From a virus: 64,000 nt of DNA. The notes under the pieces were generated by a model. The model was not told where the DNA came from. It saw nothing but the letters and a program-made list of their open reading frames with translations, and did not search any database. The translations under genes were made by a program, and so were the position numbers. The stretch's first letter is position 1, and every line of letters starts with the position of its first letter. This document shows positions 628 through 46,078 of the stretch, piece by piece. Location: IMG/VR virus record IMGVR_UViG_3300029425_000240; one strand, written 5' to 3'.

Positions 628-1560
628 TTAATATTGTTCTGTCATTTCGTCAAGGAACTCGTCGAAATCATCCTCATCGCTATAGGATTGAACGCTATTC
701 GCTATATTTGGATGTGCGTCAGTGTGTGCGGTTGTCATGGTTTTATTGTTTGACAATTCGAATGAATCTTCTTTTATCTTGTTGTTATTATCTTTGGAGC
801 CAGGCTCAATACTCTTTGCCTTATCATTTATCAGGGCCTTGTGCTCAGTATTTTTTACGATATCTGCTGGTTCTGCTTCATGCTTTTCTGTAGGCAGCTC
901 AACATACCTGGATTCATTATCATCTTTTACATTGTCCCATAAACTCCGTTCATCAGTGTCAACCGTGTCATCTGTTATTCCTTTTTTTTGTTTTTCTTTT
1001 AGTTTAGCTCCTCTGCTTGCTGTTTTTGTCAACTCGCCGACAAAGTCGGACTCGTTACCAGATTCTATTAAAGTTCTCGTCGTCACATCAGGGCTTTTGA
1101 GTTCTGTTTGGGTGCATTTATCTCTTTCTTTTTTTGTCTGTCTTATTTCTTTCTCATCTCTTCCACCCTGAAATTTTCGTGACATTTCATTGAAAAACGA
1201 TGTATCCCCATTGACACAGTACTCTTCAAGAAAAACACCGCAAAGATATTGACGTAGTACGACTTTAATGAAATTGTTTCTGTATCCTGGTGTTATTTTA
1301 TGCAGCAAGGAAATCGCATCAGAGTCTTCCTTTCCATCCAGTACCACATGATAGTGATAATACTTCCGGAAGCTCGTCTTTGGATACTTGGCGAGCCTTT
1401 TATCATTCGTGTGTAATAATTTGACTTTATACACTTCGCCACGGGCATAAGAATTTAGTACTTGCCTGGTTGTTTCAGGAAAGGAAACTTTCCCTGTTTT
1501 ATACAGGCCAACCAGGTCCATGTCATGATAGGAATACAGTTTTACTTCTACCTTCATCAT
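628..1560 (-). CDS. hypothetical protein: folded N-domain plus K/E-rich disordered tail with acidic C-terminus; coupled to parM-like gene (possible segregation adaptor)
   Basis: ATGA overlap with upstream actin-like ATPase gene; C-terminus DEDDFDEFLDEMTEQY; adaptor role is inferred from synteny only. Confidence 0.5.
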   Translation of the reverse strand: MMKVEVKLYSYHDMDLVGLYKTGKVSFPETTRQVLNSYARGEVYKVKLLHTNDKRLAKYPKTSFRKYYHYHVVLDGKEDSDAISLLHKITPGYRNNFIKVVLRQYLCGVFLEEYCVNGDTSFFNEMSRKFQGGRDEKEIRQTKKERDKCTQTELKSPDVTTRTLIESGNESDFVGELTKTASRGAKLKEKQKKGITDDTVDTDERSLWDNVKDDNESRYVELPTEKHEAEPADIVKNTEHKALINDKAKSIEPGSKDNNNKIKEDSFELSNNKTMTTAHTDAHPNIANSVQSYSDEDDFDEFLDEMTEQY

Positions 1561-11500: not shown

Positions 11501-12848
11501 CGCCAGCACCCACCGAATCCTCACGGCTTCCCCGCGATGACTGGTACCTTGATTCGTTATGAACGTTTGCACGATTTCTTTCATCCCTTACCTCGGGTCT
11601 GTCCTGTCCAAAAAAATCAGAATAAGTATCTCCTTTTACAACATGACTTACATCCTGAGCGCTTTTCGTGTTAAGTTCTTCATGACCAGATATTTGTTCT
11701 ACATTTTCCCGCTTTGGTTCAAATACTTGAGGACCAGTTCTATTTATGTCTTCTGTAATATGGGAATCTTTTTCCGCATAGTCATTTGTGATACGAGAAG
11801 AATACTCATTTGTCGCAGACCTGTTATTATCTTTCTTTTCAGGCTCCGGCCTTTCATCTCTCTTATCATTCTTATGCGACCTGTCTTGTGCATCTGATAA
11901 TGTGTCATTGTCCTTGGTCTGCATCTGCTGATACAAATCAGACGACTTTCGAGCTTCGCGCTCGTACCCAGACGCTGAACGTGGATTCAAACCCTCGTGC
12001 GACGTTAAAATTGAAGTATTTGCCTCATGAGCGGATTCTTGCCGGTCATGGATTTCCCGTTCTTCGTTAAACGTATCTGGTTCATAATACTGAGTTTTAC
12101 TCTCATTGTGTTTTGTCAATTCGTCCGAAATATTACCTTTCACCACATTTGTAACATCATCTGCACTTTTACTCTTATCGTGTATACTTGTGATATTAAC
12201 AGTTGTTTCAGGTCTCTCAGCCAGTTCCTTTTGCCTTAAAGCTTCTCTTTGCCGTTGCTGTTCTTCAGCCCTGGCCATGGCCTCTCCACGTTCGTCTTCA
12301 AGTTTGGATTCCAGAGACATACGATGCTCATTATCATATCGCTCCTGTTCCGCAGCACGAGACAATGCTTCACGGCGTTCTTCGTCAAGATGAGCCCGCA
12401 TCTCGTCACCTTTTCGGTATTTTTCACTGTCCCTCTGGTTTCCGGTATGTTCTCCACCTACGATATTCTTTAAAACTTGGTCTTTCGTTGAAAGCCCCTG
12501 TGGTTCTTCCGGTCCTGGCTCCTCTTCGCCCTCTTCTACCTCTTCATCTGCAGAGGCATCTTCAATGGTTCTTTCACCATGTCCATCTTCTTGTCTCTCA
12601 AGCTGAAGTTCTCGCAGATATTCATAAAATTCCGGATACTTATCTGGAATTTCTAAAATTTCCGCATTATCAAAAAGTTCATCCAGGTCGACTCTGCTTA
12701 AAGCCTCATCTGCCGCTTTAAAGCTAATCCTTTCCTCGTCTGATATATCTGGGGAATCCTGTTTTCCGTCTATATCTATCATATCCAGACATAAACCTCT
12801 CTGAAACAGATTGGCCAATAAGCTTATATATTCTTCTTTTGGCAACAT
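5535..12848 (-). CDS. giant (~2440 aa) multidomain membrane protein: disordered acidic/Arg-rich N-terminal ~1000 aa, Ala-rich helical region, Lys-rich amphipathic segment plus single TM, C-terminal peptidoglycan-hydrolase region ending in a phage-tail-lysozyme/SLT-like domain (GYGLTQWSFGRR...)
   Basis: Single uninterrupted frame; start re-assigned to ATG 12848 after GGGAGGTGAAAAGG RBS; K-rich segment then LISALVAALGPIIIALIIVLAIILCIISYV TM; architecture resembles VirB1/PrgK/TcpG-type conjugation hydrolases (inference). Confidence 0.75.
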   Translation of the reverse strand: MLPKEEYISLLANLFQRGLCLDMIDIDGKQDSPDISDEERISFKAADEALSRVDLDELFDNAEILEIPDKYPEFYEYLRELQLERQEDGHGERTIEDASADEEVEEGEEEPGPEEPQGLSTKDQVLKNIVGGEHTGNQRDSEKYRKGDEMRAHLDEERREALSRAAEQERYDNEHRMSLESKLEDERGEAMARAEEQQRQREALRQKELAERPETTVNITSIHDKSKSADDVTNVVKGNISDELTKHNESKTQYYEPDTFNEEREIHDRQESAHEANTSILTSHEGLNPRSASGYEREARKSSDLYQQMQTKDNDTLSDAQDRSHKNDKRDERPEPEKKDNNRSATNEYSSRITNDYAEKDSHITEDINRTGPQVFEPKRENVEQISGHEELNTKSAQDVSHVVKGDTYSDFFGQDRPEVRDERNRANVHNESRYQSSRGSREDSVGAGVLDRKKAEDTSQYHSEAGSEAAVDNTRRTESENKYISDSYEKSGQRDTGETYKRHQYDGGYGGTDKENRLYEAENNHTNRNTERVGPNQGSEYNEGFIYKKDAGINKHAESDGSIVEKRREHDTEGYRSTQGFDKPNSSEPYKASSIPQHEKESVYDGNAISNPDSGNASNGTAQYKREASESKKYINDSYEQAGQRESADIQSHKDTGEDTYASFKPKAYDATKNEDQSSTFVARNERRAYDATANSTDSIARKENGDSHSVLNFGADKRPSAEPASENAKRYVSSSYEMAGQREAEHKDRGYENLERQGLADKHTGSVQPPFSDGIGEVERKYEKSSTREHSASEVTSRRQSAVDDLSKSERFQADNIVRRPISQMPASHTASNQYPGLDGDSHQPSEAKTMTHDQRQDVGNHRDEKPGASAIEEVLRNRAANQENQDADRASGGINERKQTYSRDSYESSGQAPVDEKRKEPYGPGETYSYVGRKDGQADRKVTENRVLKSDKTDVVYPQKRGSSVASESKNGLQSIKKKDETKVIEITVPSGSGQTHTVRGTVSGAAAVTAVAAALAAREAAKATSDAAKTATDKAEGMVMLKDASIMSASELAAYASAVNSAQAATQISGKQIADSYALAGQADVETIKINVEQALANAREIAAGTRSGLNVPGVTSGPVGPTSSGATQNFNITRPSIHTLGIPGVVKNSNFTDVGMFVLKEGNQVTISRNGKSKRYTVRSDGTIRIDGIVLNVYSVDKDRAFVGWKNAAVYGGKIYTATGTVLDISTDGSIGTTKTLAGLEFHIKRDVKVNAKQMTMAMTIAPALNQPITDADFVKVGDKFISNKVTESYSGLLYQKALNKGKVSQLIFKQKMAMHSVFRAQLLAGAAANMKSIDLKLDLNTLVANYDKILTSISGNSKQFYQMNVFLETRYLSDIERQYLFDAKAKLKHLGLTENTDTLKELLAGGGLSPEAASAITDYLNVYENTREKIIRKGVLGDQSIGDFKVERAFYAAALPYVLQARGLPSDKKALKKLLKAGTTSKETKELIRNVFKLQRRMFLLNLTETTLTAYAKGAVKAVKNGYRKIKSLANRYMGDDYTMRGLLMMESIIVGSAMKAYRTSRKIKWMRENAGRLLNSSIRLGKSIGNAAVAGYRGAKAGIHAVHMGGRAARKGFQYLRKNGLKKTLKKGVKKLRMKGTKVVRKGVLKVAKVAQKAAIKAIQAAIKLIQTLISALVAALGPIIIALIIVLAIILCIISYVKNAGNEVYYDAGDEDTTEVLQEMVDVLTLCHNSFRSELSNHFGGTSSTGSASGTDGSTMNAPQLQKGDSSKVQGLYDVTEGTWWNYEFTYQYIHGNWASGTRQQALDNKVTVEGNGNYAVVDQNGTKMYMAAFGSYWGKVGDVLKVEFNNEFTIGSQPASNTMYIIIADEKAWKDTGYPAEQEGIYGHHLGSHRDFAEFIGYGSKPAGLNGNGLIPTTATNMGSILDGTFDSSTIGTGSAASSVSVNADILYRQEIDQDVYRDILNRDKNIYYTFPEEQKVPDGITPTPTPEGYVKADAKGEVYGFYNNNQELISMVMAMFDFEASSSTSTKSTIISKKDASGFDEAKTNDTYQKGMTDKEVDDKWKLIEYLNEKGLDLTNYKAGGYDDLRYSALIGLFNASHIITGTAVKQYHAGPDGTINPVYNDDGRIVGQNNTDGMSYQVPVMETKTRQVRNEHGDIQIEYYTGYKTDSDGNIVYETKYAPCPGHTKYSGAVITLHFDSLLNLDDWWEKNIYGVDDFDKENPNYESSDASADTYRAKENTLKRTIQYIKKPDYYKSLSGTCSEGENSTTDSFNPGTWDGDQAKVAKEVYEFLTTKMSRKLTSEQAMGVLVNIYRECSFNYTEEETGGTGYGLTQWSFGRRTKLVQWCNANGYQYNTLEGQLKRLECEFTEDTSDWSPSGVEGFYACTTAREAGEFFITNYERPGAQYKAQRLAEMDSDIATIQAMLQS

Positions 12849-13480: not shown

Positions 13481-13730
13481 GCTATCTTGATAGCTCACGC
13501 TTCGCGCTCGTGATACCTTGCCGTATCGGCTCGGTACCAATTTGCGCAGCAAATGTCAAACGAAGCCGTAAGGCTGAGTGGTTCGGCGAACTTGCGTTCG
13601 TCATCACCAGACGTTGACTGCCGTCCAGCAATGAAGCGTGTTTCGAATGGGGATTCAGACCCGCGTGCGAAGTTAAGACCTGAACCTTTGACCCGCGGAC
13701 GACTTTTTGTCAGCCGGGGGTTTTCGCCCT
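13481..13730. repeat. mosaic hairpin-repeat cluster R1 (modules C-A-B)
   Basis: GGTACCAATTTGCGCAGCAAATGTCAAACGAAGCCGTAAGGCTGAGTG (module A) and GTGCGAAGTTAAGACCTGAACCTTTGACCCGCGGACGACTTTTTGTCAGCCGGGGG (module B) recur at other loci; module B forms the last ~20 codons of ORF 13673-14497. Confidence 0.7.
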
Positions 13731-14497
13731 TCGTAAATACTTTGTTTCATTGCTGTATCTAGCGCTATAGCCCATATCACTCCAAAGCACATTGCGCTTA
13801 GCATAAAAATACTTGCGCCCATATTCACGAACAGTCCTGAAATGCAAGCAACAGCAGAAACTAAAGCATTTGCCCAATTTCTTTTCAATAGAAAGATAAG
13901 CAACACAATTAGCATCCCTGCAATTGGAAAATACGCCAACCACCCTTGCTGCAATGGGCTTAACATTAAATGACAGTCTCCTACATGTAAAATTTCAAAA
14001 ATGGCTTTTTTTACTTTTTCGAAATACCATGCACCTTCTCCTGCATTATTAAAGACAGAATCCCACTGCTTATCGTTTAAATACAGCGCCATTTTAAACA
14101 ATGATTTTTTATTTTGTACATTGTCTGGCAAATTTAATGCAAATAAAAACGCATGGCGGTTTGTTTTAAATGACAGCACGTATTCAAAATTCGACATCAC
14201 GCGCTGTAGCTTACTGTTCCATGTATACGCTGTATTAACAAGATAATTTATAAAATACGTGATTAACAACATGATTCCAATATACACCGGAAAGAATAAA
14301 TTTACTTTTGCTGTTTCCGTCTTTTTTTTATTCTTTTTTATCCCTATTACCCAAAATAGTCCCTTCACCGTTGACCCGATAATCACTGCCGAACAAAAAG
14401 CGACAAAAATAACAGACCATGCGATTGACGTTGCACCAAAATATTTTTCAAAGAAATAAGAAGACTCAGCAAGCAACGATTTTAATATTCTCAACAC
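13673..14497 (-). CDS. polytopic integral membrane protein (274 aa)
   Basis: GTG start after AAGGAGGG RBS; at least 5 hydrophobic helices; last ~20 codons lie inside repeat module B (13641-13730), so the true C-terminus is uncertain. Confidence 0.5.
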   Translation of the reverse strand: MLRILKSLLAESSYFFEKYFGATSIAWSVIFVAFCSAVIIGSTVKGLFWVIGIKKNKKKTETAKVNLFFPVYIGIMLLITYFINYLVNTAYTWNSKLQRVMSNFEYVLSFKTNRHAFLFALNLPDNVQNKKSLFKMALYLNDKQWDSVFNNAGEGAWYFEKVKKAIFEILHVGDCHLMLSPLQQGWLAYFPIAGMLIVLLIFLLKRNWANALVSAVACISGLFVNMGASIFMLSAMCFGVIWAIALDTAMKQSIYEGRKPPADKKSSAGQRFRS

Positions 14498-24032: not shown

Positions 24033-24046
24033 TTTCGCATATTAAA
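24033..24046 (+). promoter_or_regulatory. conserved upstream box, plus orientation (TTTCGCATATTAAA)
   Basis: 45 nt upstream of plus-strand ATG 24088; orientation follows gene strand. Confidence 0.5.
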
Positions 24047-24886: not shown

Positions 24887-24901
24887 TTTCGGCATATTAA
24901 A
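24887..24901 (+). promoter_or_regulatory. conserved upstream box, plus orientation (TTCGGCATATTAAA) in front of tnpB
   Basis: 35 nt upstream of tnpB ATG 24933, after terminator 24806-24842. Confidence 0.5.
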
Positions 24902-24932
24902 TATGTAATGAAAAGGCAAGGAGGTGAGACGA

Positions 24933-26534
24933 ATGGCAAAGGCGAGAAGACGCAAAGATACGCAGTTTGAAACTTCTATGACGAAAAGTGTATTTCTGTA
25001 TGGCAGCCCGAATAAAGACAAATCTAAAATCATCCGGGATATGCAGAATGAATTTACAAAGATGGTAAATGGATATATCAGACTCCTTGCGGGTAATGAT
25101 AAATTTACACTTCAAATCGTAAAAAATGATAAGAAGAGCAGTGACATCCGCAAGTTTGAAAAATCCATCCGTCCGAAAAATGCAAATTCTGCATTCTCTC
25201 AGAATGCCTTTGACATGGCGGTGACCCATCTTTCTAACCGTATGGATAGCATCCGGCAGGATATGTATACAGAAGAACAGTCAGTCTTTACATCATCAAA
25301 AGTCCTGTTTGCAATGTCCATTGATTCCAAGACGAAGTCTGAGATGCTGAGCACTATGAAACAGATTGCGTCTAAAACAAAGAAAGACAAGGCTTTCTAT
25401 GAAGACTGTATCAGTATCCTGAATGAAATGTCAGACGACGAGTTTACATTTAAACAGGTGGAATTCATGGATATGTATATCAGTTTATCAATGGAATACC
25501 GTGTCCCAGAATTAAGACGGGCGCATATGCCTCTTGACAGCAGGCTGATGAAGATTGAAGTATCAACAGATACCGTCATGCCATATGTGATTAAGATAAG
25601 CGACGCTTTACATAAAAACGCAGAAAGAATCGTAATACCGATTAACACAAGCAGACATCCTGCCAATAAAATCAAATCACATAAAATGGCCGGTACGGTC
25701 ATGGCGTCAATTGATGAAAACGGAATCCTGCAGGTCGGATGGAGTTATGAGTCAAAAATGAAACAGCCAAAGACTTCAAATGTGGTAGGCGTTGATGTCG
25801 GTATCTCTGACACACTGCATACATCTGAAGATAAAGCAATCGGCAGCATGAAGCCGGTGATTGCTTTTTACCACGATACAGTGGAAAAGTCATTCGCTTC
25901 GCTGTCTGACATGAGAAATAAAAAACGCAGTATCAGCCATTACCTGCGAAGACATAAGGCCCTTCCGGAAGATGTGAGACGTTCTCTCATCAAAAAGATG
26001 GACCGGCTTGACCAGATGATTCAAAAGGCTGATGCCCCATACCGCAAGAAGCGCTGCTATTATGAAACACTTGACCATGAGATTAAATCAAGCATAGACA
26101 GATATATAGAATCAATCTCACATGATACCCTGACAGTCCTAGAAAAACTGGATATCAGGGAATTTAACAAAAGCCGTAAGTCTAACGGTATGATGTCAAC
26201 ATTTGCGAGAGGGAAGCTGCAGAAGAAGCTCATGGAGACTTTAAACTGGTATGGCTATGATTTCAAGGAAATTATACCGGATTACACCAGCCAGACATGT
26301 CCGGTATGCAGCCATCTTGAAAAAGACAACCGCAATGGCAAGTCTTTTAAATGCAAGTGCTGCGGATATGAAGCGGATGCGGATTATGTTGGAAGCCTGA
26401 ACATCAAGGCAAGAATCGACGACCAGGAAATACAGGAGATATGCGAAAAGTATAAGTATAAACATAATGAGTTACAGAAGAATCTTAAGATGATATACAA
26501 ATCACGTAACGACCAATACAAAGCAGCGGCCTGA
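24933..26534 (+). CDS. tnpB: TnpB-like RNA-guided endonuclease (IS605 OrfB / Cas12-ancestor family), RuvC triad intact
   Basis: RuvC-I VGVDVGISD, RuvC-II LTVLEKLD, Zn finger CPVCSH...CKCCG, RuvC-III ADADYVGSLNI; ATG 24933 after AAGGAGGTGAGACGA (track starts at GTG 24924); no adjacent tnpA. Confidence 0.8.
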   Translation: MAKARRRKDTQFETSMTKSVFLYGSPNKDKSKIIRDMQNEFTKMVNGYIRLLAGNDKFTLQIVKNDKKSSDIRKFEKSIRPKNANSAFSQNAFDMAVTHLSNRMDSIRQDMYTEEQSVFTSSKVLFAMSIDSKTKSEMLSTMKQIASKTKKDKAFYEDCISILNEMSDDEFTFKQVEFMDMYISLSMEYRVPELRRAHMPLDSRLMKIEVSTDTVMPYVIKISDALHKNAERIVIPINTSRHPANKIKSHKMAGTVMASIDENGILQVGWSYESKMKQPKTSNVVGVDVGISDTLHTSEDKAIGSMKPVIAFYHDTVEKSFASLSDMRNKKRSISHYLRRHKALPEDVRRSLIKKMDRLDQMIQKADAPYRKKRCYYETLDHEIKSSIDRYIESISHDTLTVLEKLDIREFNKSRKSNGMMSTFARGKLQKKLMETLNWYGYDFKEIIPDYTSQTCPVCSHLEKDNRNGKSFKCKCCGYEADADYVGSLNIKARIDDQEIQEICEKYKYKHNELQKNLKMIYKSRNDQYKAAA

Positions 26535-26835
26535 AACGAGTATGCAGAAAAGAAATAGTCTCTGACTATTACACCTTCTGTCGAAAGCTTCAGGCCCATA
26601 GGAGCCTCGTCGTGTCCTGCTGTAGCATGTCTGCAGCCGGGCCTCTGTCCAGGGATAGTTCTGGTGCATATGCTTGCATATGTGTCGGTTGTATTTCTCG
26701 CAGGTAAAAGTAATTGTTTTACCTGGTGTCTTCGGATACTCGGTAATTCATATTTATTCTGGTAACGACTCCGGCAAAGCCGGGGAGTTATCAATTTCCG
26801 AGAGGTTCACAAAGCGTGCAAGATTAAAAAAAGCA
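26535..26835 (+). ncRNA. candidate TnpB guide (omega/right-end) RNA scaffold
   Basis: ~300 nt ORF-poor structured region directly 3' of tnpB, with hairpins caggtaaaag..cttttacctg (26700-26726) and ccggcaaagccgg (26771-26783), then a strong terminator; by analogy to IS605-family omega RNAs. Confidence 0.35.
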
Positions 26836-29104: not shown

Positions 29105-29200
29105 TCTCGATACCCCACCAGCTCTGCCGGATTCGTTACCAATTTGCGTAGCAAATGACAAGCGAAGCCGTAAGACTGAGTGCAGAGATTAAAATTAGTA
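29105..29200. repeat. repeat locus R2 (module A copy)
   Basis: CGTTACCAATTTGCGTAGCAAATGACAAGCGAAGCCGTAAGACTGAGTGCAGAG: ~90% identical to module A at 13536 and 34193. Confidence 0.65.
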
Positions 29201-31307: not shown

Positions 31308-31377
31308 ATTTTTTCCTCCTCTTTTTTTTCTATAGTTTTCTTTCTTTTAGAGAGTCTTTTTTTTCTTTTCTCTATTC

Positions 31378-31393
31378 TCCAATATGCAAAATA
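31378..31393 (-). promoter_or_regulatory. conserved upstream box (TTTTGCATATTGGA), SSB-like operon
   Basis: 75 nt upstream of ATG 31307; overlaps T-run of terminator 31391-31432. Confidence 0.5.
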
Positions 31394-31432
31394 AAATAAA
31401 AAAGGTACATCGTAGCATTTCGCGATGTACCT
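31391..31432 (-). terminator. rho-independent terminator after SPFH gene
   Basis: GGTACATCG..CGATGTACC 9-bp stem plus T-run that merges into the next promoter box. Confidence 0.65.
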
Positions 31433-31465
31433 TTTTCTTATTTTTTTTGTCTATTGCAGCGCCTG

Positions 31466-32530
31466 TCAGTCAGTTTCGTCCTTATGCATATCATGGACCA
31501 TTCCCGCATTAGTCATCGCCGACTGCATACTTACTTTCGTCCTTGGTGTTTTCATGCAGGCATCCTCAGACACCGTCTTTTTGACGCATTTTTCTTTTCG
31601 GATTTTTTCCGCTTCGGCATTTGAGAATTCCTTTTTAGGTTCCTTTGTTGCTCCCCAAAAAGCCTCGCCGGCAATCGCTGCAGGCCCGACACCTTCTGCC
31701 AGATTATTTGGGATAAAGATTTTTGTAGCCCGGCCATCGGCCACATCCTTCATCGCTTCAATAGATTTTAAACGTAAAATATTTTCATTTACGCCTGACT
31801 CCGCAAGCCTTCTAAGTCCTTCTGCTTCTGCTTCATATACAAGCCTGATAGCCTCCGCCTGGCCTTTCGCAAGAGCAATTTTTGCGTCTCTCTCAGCTTC
31901 TGCGTCAAGCAGTTTCGCCTGCTTATCACCTTCTGCCCTGGATACTACAGATTCTTTATGTGCCTGTGCTTCCAATACGGTCTGGCGTCTTTCTCTTTCA
32001 GCCCTCATCTGCTTTGTCATGACCTCTTCAATCTCTTTCGGTGGCTTGATATTTTTGACCTCCACGCGTGATACCTTAATACCCCATTCATCAGTTGCTT
32101 CATCAAGCACATCCTGCATCTGGCGGTTGATATCTGCTCTCGAAGACAGTGTCTGGTCTAATTCCATGGCGCCAATAATACTTCTGAGAGTCGTGGCTGT
32201 CAAATTCTGTAAACCAGTGATAGGTTTCTCAATTCCATATGTATACAATTTTGGGTCGAAAACACTTGCATACACGACAGAATCGATACTAATTGTGACG
32301 TTATCTTTTGTGATAACATCCTGTGGCGGAAAATCGTACACCTGTTCCTTGATGGAGATTTTCTTTACAATCTTATCAATGACTGGAACTTTCACATGCA
32401 GGCCAGCCTCCCACGTTGTGCTGTATTTTCCAAGGCGCTCAATAATGTAGCATGCCTGCTGAGGGACGATACGTATCTGGTTCGCCAGGAATACAATGAT
32501 TATTACTAGAATAACTATAACAAAAAACAT
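31466..32530 (-). CDS. SPFH/band-7 (stomatin/prohibitin/HflK-C-like) membrane protein
   Basis: N-terminal TM, SPFH core, then Ala/Glu-rich coiled coil (AEAERDAKIALAKGQAEAIRL); AGGAGG RBS. Confidence 0.75.
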   Translation of the reverse strand: MFFVIVILVIIIVFLANQIRIVPQQACYIIERLGKYSTTWEAGLHVKVPVIDKIVKKISIKEQVYDFPPQDVITKDNVTISIDSVVYASVFDPKLYTYGIEKPITGLQNLTATTLRSIIGAMELDQTLSSRADINRQMQDVLDEATDEWGIKVSRVEVKNIKPPKEIEEVMTKQMRAERERRQTVLEAQAHKESVVSRAEGDKQAKLLDAEAERDAKIALAKGQAEAIRLVYEAEAEGLRRLAESGVNENILRLKSIEAMKDVADGRATKIFIPNNLAEGVGPAAIAGEAFWGATKEPKKEFSNAEAEKIRKEKCVKKTVSEDACMKTPRTKVSMQSAMTNAGMVHDMHKDETD

Positions 32531-32743
32531 ATTTTATCCTCCTGTGTGTTTTGTTGCCGATAACCGAAACAGGAATTTAAAGTGTTGATACAATGGCCAG
32601 TTGTCGCAAGCACGTTGTTTATGTCCCGGGTCTCTATGTACAATATGATAAATATTTGGAAGAACAGTGTATTTGTATATAAAAAACGTATAAAAAAAAA
32701 ACATGGAGGTCATCCTAATCGGCAAGCCGATTACTCTGACCTC

Positions 32744-32897
32744 GAGACAAGACATATACACTGCAAAATCGCGGAAGGTTCTATCCGCTCCGATACTGGA
32801 TATCCTATAAGTTTTCTTAAAATTCATATATATCGTGATATCCAGTATCTTCGCGTTCCAGATATATGAAGATTTTGCAGTGTACATGTCTTGTCTC
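32744..32897. repeat. 154-bp nested inverted repeat (27-bp outer arms, 13-bp perfect inner arms, AT-rich centre): candidate origin / oriT / operator
   Basis: Outer arms GAGACAAGACATATACACTGCAAAATC (32744-32770) and its complement at 32871-32897 (26/27); inner GATACTGGATATC (32792-32804) / GATATCCAGTATC (32837-32849); 32-bp AT-rich core. Confidence 0.7.
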
Positions 32898-34042
32898 AGC
32901 TTTTTTCTTTCGTTAGTGCGGGCGTGATTCATATATTCTAAAAGTTTTGACATGTTGAGTGTTATTACGATGCGTGATGTCGCTTTACCGGATAAATCAC
33001 ACCCTTCGTTAATGGGCTGCATTCCCAGTTGCCATCTCAACGTTACACCTTGCAAAAAGTAAATTTATATTTCGTAACCTTACGTTTTGAAAGGCGGCCT
33101 TTGGCCGCCATGCAGCCCAGAGGAGGAGGGAGCTGAGCAGATTGACATAGCTTCTCCTTGCGAAAAAGCGCAGACTCTCCCTATAATGGTATGCGTCTGC
33201 GCGGAAGAAGGATAACGCTATGCCATTCTGCTCAGATTTTATGTAGCCCGTCGGAATCGGTCGCTTCACATCATGACGGTCTTAGATAGCAGTCGCACTC
33301 ATCGAAAAACTTATCGAAGAGTTTATCGGAAAGCGCAACCCTGCAGTTCAAATCAGCCGTGCTGATTTTGGCGTAGTCTAAATTATACATTTCTTCTGTA
33401 CAATCTATGGCACATCCCACACGCCATGATGTTTCCATCATCCTACAGGTCCCGACAGCCCGCAAGCTGCCTGTGCATTTGTGCTTCACTTCCTCCTGTT
33501 GCGGTTTTATTACATCAACTGTATATACAATTTGTCTTTATTTCCGCGGATTCCGTTATCCACAAACTCCCCCGCGTCCTACTCTTAACCAGGTTTCCAC
33601 CCGTGCTTTCGCATCTTACGCATACAACTACGTATTAGGCAAAGGGCTTGCAACGCACTACACCCCCTTAGGTCATCGGATAGTCTAAGACCAAACTATT
33701 TTTTCCGCTCCCTGCTCGACTTTTGCCGCTCGGCAACACTTAACGTTGTTTTAGTAACCAGATTGGTCCTTGCTCTGCATTACTGCAGCATATGTCTCGT
33801 TCTCATCACGTTTTTTTTATTATTTTTGCTGATTTTGTCTTTCTTTTTTTATCTTTATGCAAAAAAAACAATAATTAACGTCCTCTTGGTAGAGGTGACA
33901 CCTCAATATTCAATTTGACCGCGTGATATTTCCACAAATTTCCTGCCTCCTTTTATTTCTTTTTTTTCGCTTCTTTGTACAATATCAGTAAGGTCCTTCA
34001 GGACTTTTTGTAAAGTTCCTGGCTGTCATCTGTATCATCAGA

Positions 34043-34058
34043 ATCAATATGCAGAATA
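34043..34058 (-). promoter_or_regulatory. conserved box (TTCTGCATATTGAT) inside the 2-kb noncoding region
   Basis: No annotated CDS downstream; AAAGGAGG-type RBS and a ~20-codon TTG/GTG mini-ORF follow ~75 nt later; may drive a leader or noncoding transcript. Confidence 0.35.
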
Positions 34059-34117
34059 ATTTGTGAACCGGACGGATTTTTTTATTTTTTTTAAAAATCA
34101 TCGACGGGAGGAAAGCC

Positions 34118-34560
34118 CTCGTCCAACTTTGATACCTCGCCGGCTTTGCCGGAGTCGGTACCAGAGCACGCATGATACCTTGTCGCATCGGCTCGTTACC
34201 AATTTGCGCAGCAAATGTCAAGCGAAACCGTAAGGCTGAGTGCAGAGAATAAATATGATACTTCGTGCTTCGCACTCAGTACCAGAATGAATATGATAAC
34301 TCAGGCTTAGCGCCTTCGTTACCAGAATAAATATGATGCCTCACCGGCCTTGCCGGATTCGGCACCAGAGCACGCATGATACCTCGCCTGCTTTACAGGA
34401 CTCGGCACCAGATTAAAAATGATAACTCAGGCTTAACGCCTTCGTTACCAGAATAAATATGATAACTCGCCGTTACCGGCTCGTTACCAAGCCTCGCAGA
34501 GGCTGACAAGCGAGCATAGCTCGCGGTATCATGAGCCTGTATGACAGGCTACTTATTTTT
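34118..34560. repeat. tandem hairpin array R3 (~10 units, period 39-45 bp)
   Basis: Unit = ~27-nt conserved block (C)GGTACCAGA-ATAAATATGATAACTC alternating with short 4-5-bp-stem hairpins (GCCGGCTTTGCCGG, GTGCTTCGCAC, AGGCTTAGCGCCT, CCGGCCTTGCCGG, CCTGCTTTACAGG, GCCGTTACCGGC); one unit carries a module A insertion. Confidence 0.75.
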
Positions 34561-35565
34561 TTTCGTTCTTTTCCATCCTTCCGACATGTCCATGTCATCG
34601 AACTCCTCATACATGTCGTCATCTTCATTTCCATCATCACCCATGACTGGTATGTAATTATCCTCCAATGCTTTTTCCTGTGCGATAATATAAGGGTACA
34701 ATTGTGCAAACTGTTTATTATTTTTTAGCTTTGTGGTAATGCGTGATATCTTACGTTTTACTTTTGGAATATTACTGCCTGGAATCTGTTCTGCAATCTC
34801 ACGATAACTGGAGTGCTTTTTACTTGAATTCTCAGGATTTAACAACAGTTCTAAGAGATTAAGCTCTTCGTCCGTCAATACATCCTTAAGGATTGTTTTT
34901 AAGTTTTCCTCTGATTCTGATTCAATAACAGATTCTTCCGGTCCTTTAATTGATGCTGTATAGTCTGCGCCCGCATCAATTAATGCTTCGTATGAGACGC
35001 TGTCTTTTTTTGACATTAAATCAAGAGTATTCTTTACGGTCGCTTCTGACAGCCCTGTCAGGCTCATGATTGTCTCAATGTCCTCTGCATTTAATCCATA
35101 TTGTTTGCAGTAATTCTGCGCGCCATTGATTTTTTTCATGGCATTCGCATAATATACAGAGGTTTTTCTGAAATTTTTGCTTGCATAATCGCTTACCACA
35201 TGGCGAATCCATGGCGCTATGAACGTAGTGATAGCACCTTTGTCAGGGTCGTAATTTTTTAATTCCGAAAAAATCTTAATCCACACATCTTGAACAATGT
35301 CTTCCTGGTGATATCTGTTCTGCATAAGTGTGCGATAGTTATCCCAAAGTGTTTTATAAACGTAATTTTTGATAAAATAGTATATCTGCGTAAATGCGTC
35401 CTGTACCGTTGCGTTGTCGCCTGCTTCAAGCGCCATATGGTATACTTTGACCAGTTTATTAATCTCTTGTGGGTCGTATTTTCCATTTGAACTGTAGACT
35501 ACCTTCTTTTCTTCTAATAGTTGAGTATTATCGGCAGCATTCATCTTTGTCACTGACGTGTCCAT
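34549..35565 (-). CDS. sigma-70 family RNA polymerase sigma factor (element-encoded), acidic C-terminal extension
   Basis: Region-2-like DIVQDVWIKIFSELKNYDPDKGAITTFIAPWIRHVVSDY, region-4 HTH SYREIAEQIPGSNIPKVKRKISRITTKL; ATG 35565 after AAGGAGGAG. Confidence 0.65.
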   Translation of the reverse strand: MDTSVTKMNAADNTQLLEEKKVVYSSNGKYDPQEINKLVKVYHMALEAGDNATVQDAFTQIYYFIKNYVYKTLWDNYRTLMQNRYHQEDIVQDVWIKIFSELKNYDPDKGAITTFIAPWIRHVVSDYASKNFRKTSVYYANAMKKINGAQNYCKQYGLNAEDIETIMSLTGLSEATVKNTLDLMSKKDSVSYEALIDAGADYTASIKGPEESVIESESEENLKTILKDVLTDEELNLLELLLNPENSSKKHSSYREIAEQIPGSNIPKVKRKISRITTKLKNNKQFAQLYPYIIAQEKALEDNYIPVMGDDGNEDDDMYEEFDDMDMSEGWKRTKKNK

Positions 35566-35824
35566 CAAAAAACTCCTCCTTGTTGATTTCTGGCTTTAAC
35601 ATCTTTTTTATAGTTTCACGATAGCTCCTCTCCGGCACCGATTTGATGTCACTCTTATCTATCTGACATAAACTTTCTCCCATCTTTTTTAATTCTTTAG
35701 TAGTTTCTTCTAATGGTTTATATTTGGAACTCCATTCTTTCCAGATAGTTTCAAAGTCATAACTTTCGTTCCCAGCAATATATTCTGCTAGATTTTTCAT
35801 TGCTGAATACATTGTTTTTCGCAT
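35528..35824 (-). CDS. hypothetical protein (98 aa), overlaps and is co-transcribed with the sigma factor gene
   Basis: ATG 35824 after AAAAGGAGG (track ORF starts at 36103 inside the previous gene); C-terminal DKDECCR; 38-nt overlap with the sigma gene. Confidence 0.45.
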   Translation of the reverse strand: MRKTMYSAMKNLAEYIAGNESYDFETIWKEWSSKYKPLEETTKELKKMGESLCQIDKSDIKSVPERSYRETIKKMLKPEINKEEFFDGHVSDKDECCR

Positions 35825-35860: not shown

Positions 35861-35876
35861 GTTAATATGCCGAAAA
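35861..35876 (-). promoter_or_regulatory. conserved upstream box (TTTCGGCATATTAAC), sigma-factor operon
   Basis: 41 nt upstream of ATG 35824, follows terminator 35895-35938. Confidence 0.5.
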
Positions 35877-38282: not shown

Positions 38283-39179
38283 TTAGCCAATTTTGAAATC
38301 ATCTAAGTCGTCATCTTCAAAAGATTCACTTTCGATTTCCTGATTTCTTTCTTTTTTGATAATGTGCGAAGTTAAAACCGGAGCGCTTGACCCGCGGACG
38401 ACTTTTTGTCGGCCGGGGATTTCCTGTTCTCCATTAATAATCCGCGCTTCCCTCCTGTGGCCAGTTCTTAGACTCGGTGCCTCCTGTTTCTTATCAGTAT
38501 TAACGTTATCTAAAAGTTCCTGTGTGCTGTTATACTCTTCGTCTTCTTCCTCATCTTCTTCCTCGTCTTCTTCATACTCATCCTCTTCATTCGTCGGCAA
38601 TTTGTCAGCAAAACTTGATTCGTTATCGAACTCAGGGCGTGAATTTAAGCCTTCATGAAAAGCTGAAACCGCAGGACCTGGCTCACAGACGATATCATCG
38701 GCCGAGTCCCCTTCGCTCTTTGCTGATTTATTGTGACTCTCTCTTGCTTTTTCTCGTTCCGGTTTCTCTTTAACATCTTCATGAGCGTTATTTCTATTTC
38801 CAATGTTTAACGCCTTTTTTATCGCGTTATTATGCATCTTCATGATACTTGTATCACTGTCAACATTGATACCCTCCAATGCAGTCTCATAATCACCCTG
38901 GTCTTCTTTAAGGAAGTTAAGGGCATTGATAATCAGATTATACATATACTGATTTCCAGTATAAATATCAGCCAGCTGTTCAAGCGTGTCCTCAATGTTT
39001 CCAGTGTTTTCAAAACATTCCTGGAAATTTTCTGCATAATCGTCTGCAAGCAGTTTCTTATTTCCTGATGCTTCACTCTCTTCCTGTGAGCCCATTTTTG
39101 CCAATTTAACAAACAGAGCGAAACCAATCACGACGCAAGAAACACCGGCTCCGATTAAAATAATCACTGTATTGTCCAT
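38283..39179 (-). CDS. TM-anchored acidic low-complexity protein (298 aa); C-terminal region carries repeat module B in frame
   Basis: N-terminal TM (IILIGAGVSCVVIGFALFV), EEDEYEEDEEEDEEEDEEY run; AAAGGAGGAG RBS; repeat 38364-38418 inside the CDS. Confidence 0.5.
   Translation of the reverse strand: MDNTVIILIGAGVSCVVIGFALFVKLAKMGSQEESEASGNKKLLADDYAENFQECFENTGNIEDTLEQLADIYTGNQYMYNLIINALNFLKEDQGDYETALEGINVDSDTSIMKMHNNAIKKALNIGNRNNAHEDVKEKPEREKARESHNKSAKSEGDSADDIVCEPGPAVSAFHEGLNSRPEFDNESSFADKLPTNEEDEYEEDEEEDEEEDEEYNSTQELLDNVNTDKKQEAPSLRTGHRREARIINGEQEIPGRQKVVRGSSAPVLTSHIIKKERNQEIESESFEDDDLDDFKIG
38362..38420. repeat. repeat locus R4 (module B copy inside CDS 38283-39179)
   Basis: GTGCGAAGTTAAAACCGGAGCGCTTGACCCGCGGACGACTTTTTGTCGGCCGGGG; read in a different frame from the copy in 13673-14497. 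Confidence 0.65.
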
Positions 39180-41280: not shown

Positions 41281-41380
41281 TCGGCTGAGCGCTTTCTGCT
41301 TGATACCTCGCCGTATCGGCTCGGCACCAGATTAAAATTGATAACTCTCCGTTCGACCCGGTACCAGATTAAAATTAATT
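41281..41380. repeat. repeat locus R5 (two module C units)
   Basis: GATACCTCGCCGTATCGGCTCGGCACCAGATTAAAATTGATAACTC...GGTACCAGATTAAAATTAA, ending on the stop codon of 41375-42235. Confidence 0.6.
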
Positions 41381-42235
41381 TTTCTTTTTCTTCTTATAAA
41401 TCAGCACTCCTGCGGCAGCACCAAGACAAACAACAATCAGCGCTCCGATTGCGATGATATTGTTCTCATCTCCTGTTTCTACAACATTATTCTGAACTTC
41501 CACGTTTCCTACTGCTGTATCAGCGGCTGCCTGTTCAGGCTGTGAATTACCTTCTGTTTCTGTCGCTTCAGGCTGTGCTGTATTGTCTTCCGGTTTTGCC
41601 TTTGGGGTAGCGGTTGGCTTCGGCGTTGCAGTCGGTTTTGGAGTTGCCGTTGGGGTTGGCGTTGCAACTTCGTTGACGGTACAGGTGTAACCTTCTACTG
41701 TCTTCATGTCTCCATCTGCACCAAGAACCGTGTAAGAGATATCGTAAGTTCCAGCCTCTTCATTGTCTACCTCATCGGTATTTAATGTTACGGAACTTAC
41801 ATAATCATCGAATGTACATCCGGATTCTGTAGGCAGTTCATCCCCTTTGTCAATCTCGATATCTTGCATGCCCTCTACATGTGATGCCAACTCAGGTTTT
41901 ACGGTGCATTTTACAGTTGCAGTCCTGTCTGTGCCATGGCTGTCTTTAAAAGTGTATTTAACATCATATTCACCCGGCTCGCTTGTATGTACACCACTGA
42001 TATCAGGTGTTATAGAATCAATATTGATATTTGATTCGGTACCTTTGAACTCTTCCTCTACGGATGGGAGGTCTTCTTTTTCGTATACCGTGATAGCCGG
42101 CAGGCTGGATATCGTTTTCGTCATATCCTGCTCATATTTTTTTTCTGCTACTTTTTTCTGGTATACAGTATAGCCCCCAGCGCCTCCAGCGGCTAAAACT
42201 GCAACAAGCACTACAGCAATTAATCCTTTTTTCAT
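41375..42235 (-). CDS. cell-surface protein with Thr/Pro linker and C-terminal sorting signal (VVETGDENN + TM + KKKKKN)
   Basis: Signal peptide; TPTPTATPKPTATPKPTATP linker; tripartite C-terminal sorting-signal architecture. Confidence 0.6.
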   Translation of the reverse strand: MKKGLIAVVLVAVLAAGGAGGYTVYQKKVAEKKYEQDMTKTISSLPAITVYEKEDLPSVEEEFKGTESNINIDSITPDISGVHTSEPGEYDVKYTFKDSHGTDRTATVKCTVKPELASHVEGMQDIEIDKGDELPTESGCTFDDYVSSVTLNTDEVDNEEAGTYDISYTVLGADGDMKTVEGYTCTVNEVATPTPTATPKPTATPKPTATPKAKPEDNTAQPEATETEGNSQPEQAAADTAVGNVEVQNNVVETGDENNIIAIGALIVVCLGAAAGVLIYKKKKKN

Positions 42236-45811: not shown

Positions 45812-46078
45812 TATCATTTGTCAGCGGCTAAAGCCTACTGCGTTCAGCCTTTACGAGACTTGGGTAGACGCGAGCACAGCTCGCGGTATCATCAATTGAT
45901 AACTCGCCAGCAGAGCCGGACTTGTTACCTGACTTCGAACGGGGATTCCGGCCCGTGTGCGAAGTTAAAACCGGGACATTTTACCCGCGGACGACTTTTG
46001 GTCGGCCTGGGGCTTTTCGCTCTCCGTTGATAACAAAAGGGTTTGTTCCGAGTTACCAATCGGCCGTATATGCCATGC
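45812..46078. repeat. repeat locus R6 (modules C-like plus B) inside the long 5' UTR of the 1142-aa surface-protein gene
   Basis: CGCGAGCACAGCTCGCGGTATCATCAATTGATAACTC...GTGCGAAGTTAAAACCGGGACATTTTACCCGCGGACGACTTTTGGTCGGCCTGGGG; a plus-oriented copy of the promoter box (TTTCGCATATTTTT, 45768-45781) lies just 5' on the plus strand. Confidence 0.65.

Follow-up and report, generated by a model that had tools for sequence, protein, structure and literature searches.

A tandem hairpin array beside a sigma-factor gene: a probable local cluster of a dispersed repeat family in large gut plasmids

The stretch of DNA analyzed here (hereafter, the window) comprises 64,000 nucleotides from the IMG/VR virus record IMGVR_UViG_3300029425_000240. 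Its GC content is ~40% and nearly all of its genes lie on the minus strand, among them a sigma-70-family factor gene that is followed by an array of hairpins. A reading of this locus made from the sequence alone had described about ten small hairpins separated by a conserved block of ~27 nt. The tandem repetition at positions 34129-34533 is genuine: at 34246-34472, Tandem Repeats Finder recognizes 5.5 copies with a period of 40 and 3.6 copies with a period of 43, and the conserved block, used as a pattern, has eight matches where 0.16 are expected. A pattern that takes the hairpin into account has 11 matches, against 0.00 expected from shuffled sequences. The proposed number of hairpins also fits the content of the array, namely eight canonical hairpin units and two hairpin blocks of a type called module A. 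The phase of the repeat has to be corrected: the block of ~27 nt spans parts of two successive lower stems, namely the 3' half of the first, a linker of 7-9 nt and the 5' half of the second, so that the real unit is a single, larger hairpin. Seven of the units were detected with a covariance model, and the eighth (34173-34201) was added by a regular expression. The locus is organized as follows, together with the plus-strand copies of the promoter-like motif found elsewhere in the window:

35863-35873, minus strand: promoter-like motif TCGGCATATTA, upstream of sigma (motif scan)
34549-35568, minus strand: sigma-70-family factor gene (Pfam Sigma70_r2, E 8.6e-11; PHROG sigma factor)
34534-34550: 7-bp hairpin abutting the sigma stop codon, with a T-run on the plus strand only (terminator scan and sequence)
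34490-34533, minus strand: entry module of module-A type, composed of GAUACC, the hairpin GCGAGC-UAU-GCUCGC, UUGUCA and the hairpin GCCU-CUGCG-AGGC (sequence)
34460-34489, minus strand: hairpin unit 1, GGUAAC-GA-GCCG GUAA CGGC-GA-GUUAUC (covariance model, 37.1 bits, and pattern)
34419-34459, minus strand: hairpin unit 2 and linker (covariance model, 50.9 bits, and pattern)
34376-34417, minus strand: hairpin unit 3 and linker (covariance model, 37.3 bits, and pattern)
34334-34375, minus strand: hairpin unit 4 and linker (covariance model, 31.5 bits, and pattern)
34293-34333, minus strand: hairpin unit 5 and linker (covariance model, 50.5 bits, and pattern)
34255-34292, minus strand: hairpin unit 6 and linker (covariance model, 32.2 bits, and pattern)
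34202-34254, minus strand: internal module A, composed of AGCC-UUAC-GGUU, UCGCUUGACA and the hairpin UUUG-CUGCG-CAAA (direct-repeat families D5 and D8)
34173-34201, minus strand: hairpin unit 7, with a GA/AA internal loop (pattern)
34129-34172, minus strand: hairpin unit 8 and linker (covariance model, 40.9 bits, and pattern)
34085-34128, minus strand: terminal module, a hairpin GGACGAGGG...CCUCCCGUC followed by GAUGAUUUUU (sequence)
34045-34055, minus strand: promoter-like motif TCTGCATATTG, just past the terminal hairpin of the array, marking the next transcription unit (motif scan)
24034-24044, plus strand: promoter-like motif (motif scan)
24889-24899, plus strand: promoter-like motif (motif scan)

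On the minus strand, that is, in the sense of the sigma gene, a unit measures ~40 bases and consists of an AU-rich linker of 7-9 nt (variants UAUUUAUUC, UUUUUAAUC and UGCGUGCUC) and a single hairpin. The lower stem of this hairpin has 7 bp (UGGUxxx/x'x'x'AUCA) and contains a near-fixed G•U pair; it is followed by a symmetric tandem GA/GA internal loop and by a variable upper stem of 4-7 bp. The units of the array are 60-90% alike and differ by compensatory changes. Folding on both strands, a check proposed by the sequence-only reading, clearly favors the minus strand (-187.5 kcal/mol, z -6.2) over the plus strand (-154.6 kcal/mol, z -4.5), a gap of 33 kcal/mol. The same reading had pointed out that the insertion within one unit recurs near 13536 and 29136, and the internal module A is indeed common to 13504-13580 and 29106-29182 (direct-repeat families D5 and D8). 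The junction found in the entry module (UUGWCA, a hairpin with a CUGCG loop and UUGGUAAC) recurs at many loci.

The transcriptional context of the array was approached through the motif TNNGCATATTR, used as a promoter-proximal marker. It occurs 18 times in the window against 1.6 expected, with 16 copies on the minus strand and two on the plus strand, these exactly upstream of the only two plus-strand genes; its strand is always that of the downstream gene. TNNGCATATTR is probably the element's own promoter or a promoter-proximal signal, and its reader may possibly be the plasmid-encoded sigma factor beside the array. In the motif scan of the window, no copy was found between sigma and the array. 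The array seems to lie within the sigma transcription unit, as a 3' untranslated region (UTR) of ~440 nt, because of this absence, because the next motif comes only after the terminal hairpin and because the T-run of the hairpin at the stop codon exists on the plus strand only. The latter hairpin is terminator-like for antisense transcription and would not stop the sigma transcript. The ~440 nt that separate the sigma stop codon from the terminal hairpin and its U-run correspond to the eight units and the two module A blocks. The terminal module is the probable transcript end: a simple terminator scan did not call it in the window, but it is conserved and closes arrays elsewhere, ending in ..GTCGAT and a T-run at locus L283 and others, with compensatory changes. 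The placement of the array in the sigma transcription unit and the compensatory changes of its hairpins speak for a structured 3' RNA or multi-hairpin RNA, one of the options offered by the sequence-only reading.

The units are not restricted to this array. A covariance model (R1) built on 64 distinct units was used to scan the window, which contains 14 units in total, including six sites outside the array:

26751-26794, plus strand: single unit in the sole plus-strand gene block (TnpB), in sense orientation (covariance model, 53.7 bits)
41300-41384, minus strand: one good and one degenerate unit directly past the stop codon of an Ig-like surface protein gene (covariance model for the good unit, 41300-41338, and pattern)
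45896-45939, minus strand: single unit adjoining a copy of the repeat D1 (see below), in the long leader of a gene for a 1142-aa protein (covariance model, 43.9 bits)
13510-13548, minus strand: single unit joined to module A, downstream of a D1 element (covariance model and pattern)
29107-29150, minus strand: degenerate unit joined to module A (covariance model, 21.5 bits)
1026-1069, minus strand: single unit inside the program-called open reading frame (ORF) 628-1560, just downstream of parM (covariance model, 27.8 bits)

The last of these sites makes the ORF 628-1560 doubtful, because the unit inside it measures ~43 nt, which is no multiple of three; this ORF, taken for ParR by the sequence-only reading, may represent two genes or be partly spurious.

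Beyond the window, metagenome contigs were searched with a two-unit pattern, which yielded 74 stretches whose source, where the record names state one, is the human gut. A strict scan gave 218 units (132 of them distinct) on ~80 stretches of human-gut metagenomes and viromes, in runs of one to six, with a background of three matches in 2.5 Mb of unrelated DNA. The first virome pattern scan had returned chance single matches, save for one IMG/VR contig with real arrays and units at five places; in the genome-contig pattern scan, none of the matches listed passed the pairing filter and they were chance single matches. Apart from the units, most of these contigs have no nucleotide similarity to the window. 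The ~100 sites found in related contigs lie beside unrelated genes, encoding leucine-rich repeat (LRR) and Ig surface proteins, sortase, ClpX, ParA or a radical-SAM enzyme. The sequence-only reading, which favored plasmid maintenance, had suggested to look for the same array next to par or rep genes in related elements; at ~80 loci, the neighbors are diverse and unrelated genes. Within this plasmid family, the units are thus scattered in the manner of REP or MITE elements with no tie to maintenance genes, a distribution that the sequence-only reading had named, for the host chromosome, as evidence against its proposal.

Four contexts recur among these sites: units are found right after the promoter-like motif, right before a Shine-Dalgarno sequence, after D1 and before the conserved terminal hairpin. 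At some loci they begin at most ~10 nt from the promoter motif or end directly at the Shine-Dalgarno sequence. D1 is a second dispersed repeat of ~95-100 nt (ACGGAGAACGGGAAATCCCCGGCCGAC...GGGTCTGAATCCCCGTTCGAAGTC) with 87 matches in related loci. Its copies often begin exactly behind a promoter-like GCATATTA, or behind TTA/TCA, and are often succeeded by hairpin units. RNAalifold gives only four pairs for D1, and a consensus structure was not found. The window has the following copies:

13637-13734, minus strand: D1 copy
45929-46027, minus strand: D1 copy
38364-38434, minus strand: D1 copy
11977-12067, minus strand: D1 copy

Some D1 copies lie inside long ORFs and two of the three D1 reading frames are open, which recalls the Rickettsia palindromic elements. 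D1 also contains a T-arm-like GGGTCTGAATCCC. Overall, the units occur singly or in head-to-tail runs, accompanied by module A, the terminal hairpin and often D1.

The hairpin is constrained on the gene-sense strand, where the foot of the stem is conserved in sequence and the top is free. In an alignment of 64 distinct units (A2), 94.2% of the cells in paired positions are compatible with pairing, against 78.7% in shuffles, and covariation scores 0.415, compared with 0.137 for shuffled units and no more than 0.086 when the register is slid. Compensatory changes are evident at pair 15:40 (AU in 37 units, CG in 25, GC in two) and at pair 19:36 (GC in 31, AU in 21, CG in seven). When positions were freed one by one, the four outer pairs of the stem remained essentially invariant, the wobble position was G•U in 53 of 60 units (G:C in six, A:U in one), and the internal loop was GA/GA in 53 of 65 units and Watson-Crick in none. 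When units were chosen by a strand-symmetric rule, there were 49 cases of G•U against 20 of A•C; an earlier and noisier scan based on the anchors only had found both balanced at the variable stem positions and is uninformative. The 3' end of the unit is ATCA in 126 of the 132 distinct units. The distance between the conserved half-stems varies from 13 to 20 nt, and the variable parts are palindromes of 9-18 nt that recur between units and loci. Several units carry the upper hairpin GCGAAGC, a sequence that forms very stable DNA mini-hairpins. This pattern of constraint fits RNA and single-stranded DNA alike and does not decide between them.

Approximately 80% of the units point along the local transcription unit. 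In the window, all 14 units are in sense orientation relative to the local promoter motif, including the one in the plus-strand gene block. Across all loci, 50 units are sense and 12 antisense to the promoter motif, and 65 are sense and 16 antisense to the downstream ORF, based on crude ORF calls. The arrays are strictly head-to-tail on one strand, and a facing pair is found at two loci only (L116 and L141).

Comparison with relatives shows that the units are gained and lost whole and that their presence is lineage-specific. In sister plasmids whose sigma proteins are 74-81% identical to that of the window (L097-L102), the upstream synteny is kept but sigma is directly followed by the gene of the single-stranded DNA-binding protein (SSB). 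In the window, where 31308-34548 was compared with these plasmids, a 3.2-kb segment stands between both genes; it holds the array, an ORF-free stretch of 1.4 kb and the gene of an SPFH/Band-7 protein (31466-32530). The sigma-SSB spacers of the sister plasmids (106, 118 and 455 nt) contain no unit, and none was found in the other stretches examined from them; likewise, D1 was not found in the examined stretches of this unit-free lineage (L097, L099-L102). The units at 41300-41384 are missing from the orthologous site of L099, L100 and L101 (alignment A1). Comparison with L107 shows the unit at 26751 as a clean insertion of 43 nt, linker and hairpin, between ...GGTAATTCA and ATTKCCGAG, exactly where a conserved omega-RNA-like region ends. 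Turnover is also visible among close relatives: contigs 96% identical to the window have three units fewer, lost at two separate places in the unit register, and between strains whose flanks are 97-100% identical the number of units at a locus differs (eight against five, 2/4/5, 1/4/5 or ~1/5/7).

The gene content of the window, from Pfam and PHROG scans of ~45 of its proteins, is that of a Firmicutes-type conjugative element. It includes a CD1115-type VirD4 coupling protein (whose identity to any PLSDB plasmid does not exceed 37%), topoisomerase III, a RecD2-like helicase, the actin-like ParM (1557-2717), SSB, the beta subunit of DNA polymerase III, a sortase, a signal peptidase, LRR and Ig surface proteins, FtsH, SIR2, a TnpB-like protein and a 2440-aa protein with a phage-lysozyme domain. 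Known phages and plasmids gave no match by megablast, by blastn with the array region or by tblastn with the sigma factor. An exact look-up of the sigma protein, taken from its TTG start, retrieved no record, and the called start probably differs. The contigs that carry homologues of the sigma factor come from human-gut samples and reach 382-427 kb. The family resembles, and resemblance is all that is claimed, the 'Hodor' megaplasmids, which a 2026 preprint (PMC12934698) presents as conjugative and >300 kb long.

These observations are best explained by a repeat that colonized the spaces between genes in a single lineage of large conjugative plasmids of Firmicutes type from the human gut. With moderate confidence, the array can be regarded as a local cluster of this modular, dispersed hairpin repeat, akin to REP, BIME and BOX elements, which would be transcribed as the 3' UTR of sigma and play a role at the RNA level. 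The assignment to such a family, which is based on the behavior of the repeat, is well supported; the RNA-level role, as a stabilizer, a processing site or a protein-binding site, is deduced from the sequence. At the sigma locus, the array would be transcribed as the ~440-nt 3' UTR of the sigma-factor mRNA and would act, if at all, as RNA. Stable hairpins spaced by AU-rich single strands could block 3' exonucleases and so protect the sigma transcript. Alternatively, the string of hairpins may offer endonuclease or protein-binding sites that set the stability or processing of this transcript. The invariant lower stem, with its G•U pair and GA/GA loop, could be the surface recognized by the protein or enzyme that handles the units. 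Array length might change by unequal recombination or slippage between units, and new units inserted 3' of the ...TCA that ends every unit could be a second route of growth.

Several points weigh against this interpretation. The transcription of the array with sigma and its effect as RNA are themselves derived from sequence features. The covariation test is partly circular, as the units had been selected for pairing, and it is for this reason that positions were freed one by one; yet even the fixed G•U and GA/GA could stem from recent common descent rather than from selection. Upper hairpins of the GCGAAGC type would fit a single-stranded DNA role equally well. The orientation bias is confounded with the direction of replication because almost all genes of the replicon point one way, and the plus-strand unit at 26751 alone separates both factors. 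Neither a transposase nor a binding protein for the units was identified among the ~45 window proteins scanned. Finally, the absence of the array from the sister lineage and its hypervariable copy number show that it is dispensable.

The closest known counterparts in behavior are the REP and BIME elements of Enterobacteria and Pseudomonas. These are also short (~30-40 nt) imperfect palindromes, present in high copy number in intergenic regions and usually within transcription units, that cluster locally, accumulate compensatory stem changes and vary in presence between strains; their own reported roles are those of 3' mRNA stabilizers and protein-binding sites. Yet REP elements have a GT(A/G)G head, whereas the units studied here begin with (A/U)UCUGGU and have no GTAG in alignment A2; BIMEs and REPINs alternate inverted copies whereas these arrays are head-to-tail; and the fixed G•U, the tandem G•A loop and the location on a plasmid instead of a chromosome are further differences. 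A RAYT gene was not found among the ~45 scanned proteins of this window, which shows 64 kb of an element whose relatives reach 382-427 kb. The architecture is reminiscent of the BOX elements of Streptococcus pneumoniae (boxA-boxBn-boxC), also intergenic in a Firmicute and stably folded, in which a tandem middle module of ~45 nt and variable number is combined with different end modules. Here, an entry module, eight units and a terminal module follow the same plan, and orthologous sites have one to eight units. This likeness is one of build; the companions here are module A, D1 and the terminal hairpin, and each unit closes as a hairpin of its own, with conserved non-canonical pairs.

Another comparison is provided by the STAXI RNA motif (RF01728; Weinberg et al. 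2010, PMC2864571), a pseudoknot repeated two or three times in Enterobacteriales. It too is a small structure repeated in tandem, located in mobile elements near genes for ssb, topoisomerase and anti-restriction functions, for which RNA and single-stranded DNA are equally left undecided (PMC2864571). The Rfam scan suggested by the sequence-only reading matched no family, STAXI included: there were no matches in the window at gathering thresholds and only chance-level ones in 32400-34700 at E up to 5. A search for tRNA and tmRNA with ARAGORN was negative. Keyword searches of the Hodor preprint (PMC12934698) retrieved, in the text they covered, no mention of hairpins or intergenic repeats. On the strength of this and of the lack of an Rfam match, it appears that, although the kind of element is known, this particular family, the conserved G•U and tandem G•A of its stem foot, and the strict head-to-tail order of its arrays are undescribed as far as those sources extend.

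The main competing explanation, which we regard as a tentative one, is that the units are purely selfish hairpin elements acting at the DNA level, moved as single-stranded DNA by an HUH/Y1 transposase of the RAYT or IS200/IS605 TnpA type, whose gene would lie in another part of the plasmid or in the host, any effect as RNA being incidental. The foot of the hairpin and its mismatches would be the transposase recognition site and new copies would insert 3' of TCA; since the units end in ATCA, insertion beside an existing unit would then build head-to-tail arrays. HUH enzymes such as those of IS608 and REP-RAYT typically read a stem foot with fixed mismatches, and the invariant foot and free upper stem of the units have this appearance. 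The 43-nt insertion at 26751 lies exactly after ...TTCA and ends in ...ATCA, the ending shared by 126 of 132 units, and D1 copies likewise begin after TTA or TCA, but no TCA precedes the units at 41300. The lineage-specific expansion, the few antisense units (L141, L116) and the GCGAAGC loops of several upper hairpins would also suit such elements. Nevertheless, copy-number steps in multiples of the unit are equally explained by recombination, and the only unit that separates the directions of transcription and replication (26751) is sense to transcription. As for the enzyme, IS605-family TnpB genes are present, but no Y1 transposase was found among the scanned window proteins. A search with an IS200 TnpA sequence gave one match, in L277, and this lone IS200-like element has unrelated ends. 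The gene in question (L277 1880-2335, 151 aa) lies near a radical-SAM gene, ~630 nt from a two-unit array, and its flanking hairpins are unlike the units.

A second alternative, which seems unlikely, keeps the RNA level but assigns the arrays a regulatory function. Single hairpins by ribosome-binding sites would be operators, and the multi-unit arrays (that of sigma and the cassettes formed by promoter, D1, array and terminator) would titrate a hairpin-binding regulator as CsrB/RsmZ do CsrA, so that copy number would tune a regulon. Like the units, the CsrB/RsmZ sponge RNAs have many hairpins with one conserved recognition feature, separated by single-stranded linkers, and single copies of the feature near the ribosome-binding sites of mRNAs. 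In several genes the units end directly at AAAGGAGG-N-ATG, and at L283 arrays of up to seven or eight units stand between the promoter region and a terminator-like module with no coding sequence. The invariant non-Watson-Crick features (G•U, GA/GA and the UCU 5' flank) beneath a free upper stem also resemble a surface for protein recognition. However, the units have no GGA loops, their conservation is in the stem foot and not in the loop, no cognate protein is known and their copy number varies between strains, to the point that the same 5' UTR has between one and five units. Most single units are not beside a ribosome-binding site, no candidate RNA-binding protein was found among the scanned window proteins, and the sister plasmids have the same genes without units, which is hard to square with a conserved regulon. 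The corresponding speculation about the whole plasmid is quite unlikely as well: a putative protein reading the stem foot would govern a post-transcriptional regulon in which single hairpins at mRNA 5' ends and at the ribosome-binding sites of surface-protein genes serve as operators, arrays as decoys and copy number sets the amount of free regulator.

The sequence-only reading had given prominence to a ParR centromere or Rep iterons, an explanation that is now very improbable. It is true that the array consists of direct repeats in tandem, that their period is close to four helical turns and that the plasmid encodes the actin-like ParM (1557-2717). Yet the array lies 31 kb from parM, has no adjoining rep gene in the window and is bordered by the sigma gene and the ORF-free stretch; its unit recurs at six other sites of the window and ~100 elsewhere, beside unrelated genes; and the orthologous spacer of the sister plasmids (L097-L102) has no array, while copy number is hypervariable where the array exists. 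Moreover, compensatory stem changes and a variable distance between half-stems (13-20 nt) are unsuited to a protein-binding site in double-stranded DNA. Hardly credible, finally, is a type III antitoxin (of the ToxI, CptI or AntiQ type), that is, a tandem RNA repeat cut by a downstream endoribonuclease toxin that its units inhibit: the period of 39-44 nt is within the ToxI/CptI range and a terminator-like hairpin follows the array, but the next 1.4 kb have no credible ORF (a program-called ORF of 173 aa has no Pfam or PHROG match), the units are divergent with compensatory changes instead of near-identical, and single units are dispersed in the UTRs of many genes.

Three other candidates were rejected. 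In agreement with the sequence-only reading, the array is not CRISPR-like, as the palindromes in its variable parts recur and cas genes are absent; the sole Cas12f/TnpB-like protein is 7.5 kb away and has a 3' RNA region of its own. A T-box or riboswitch leader finds no Rfam match, and a kink-turn is contradicted by the absence of a 3-nt bulge beside the G•A pairs.

Regardless of its function, this repeat family has practical consequences. One lineage of the plasmid family is densely seeded with modular repeats (hairpin units, module A, D1 and a shared promoter-like motif) that will interrupt assemblies made from short reads and can pass for CRISPR arrays or iterons, and unit copy number is a ready-made strain marker. 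The units occupy UTRs of sigma-factor and surface-protein genes, a location in which elements of the REP and BOX type are known to affect the stability and the expression of mRNAs. Should the stem foot with its G•U and G•A pairs prove to be a protein-binding site, it would represent a new module of RNA-protein or single-stranded DNA-protein recognition in a very widespread mobile element of the gut.

Two neighboring regions deserve mention. The plus-strand block that carries the unit at 26751 contains the gene of a 536-aa TnpB/Cas12f-like protein (24924-26534), followed by ~215 nt of conserved non-coding sequence (26535-26750) that is omega-RNA-like and 72% identical in L107; a 100%-identical internal piece of this gene, 1310 nt long, occurs in another context in L333. 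On the minus strand, between the SPFH gene and the terminal hairpin and promoter-like motif of the array, the 1.4 kb at 32575-34040 have no credible ORF. For the 741-nt core of this stretch (33060-33800), the folding energy is -261 kcal/mol in the minus-strand sense (z -6.1) and -205 kcal/mol in the plus-strand sense (z -4.6). The stretch has no match in Rfam or in the phage and plasmid collections, and near-identical copies only are known from L292, L316 and L321. It may correspond to a large non-coding RNA or be part of a 3.2-kb insertion relative to the sister plasmids.

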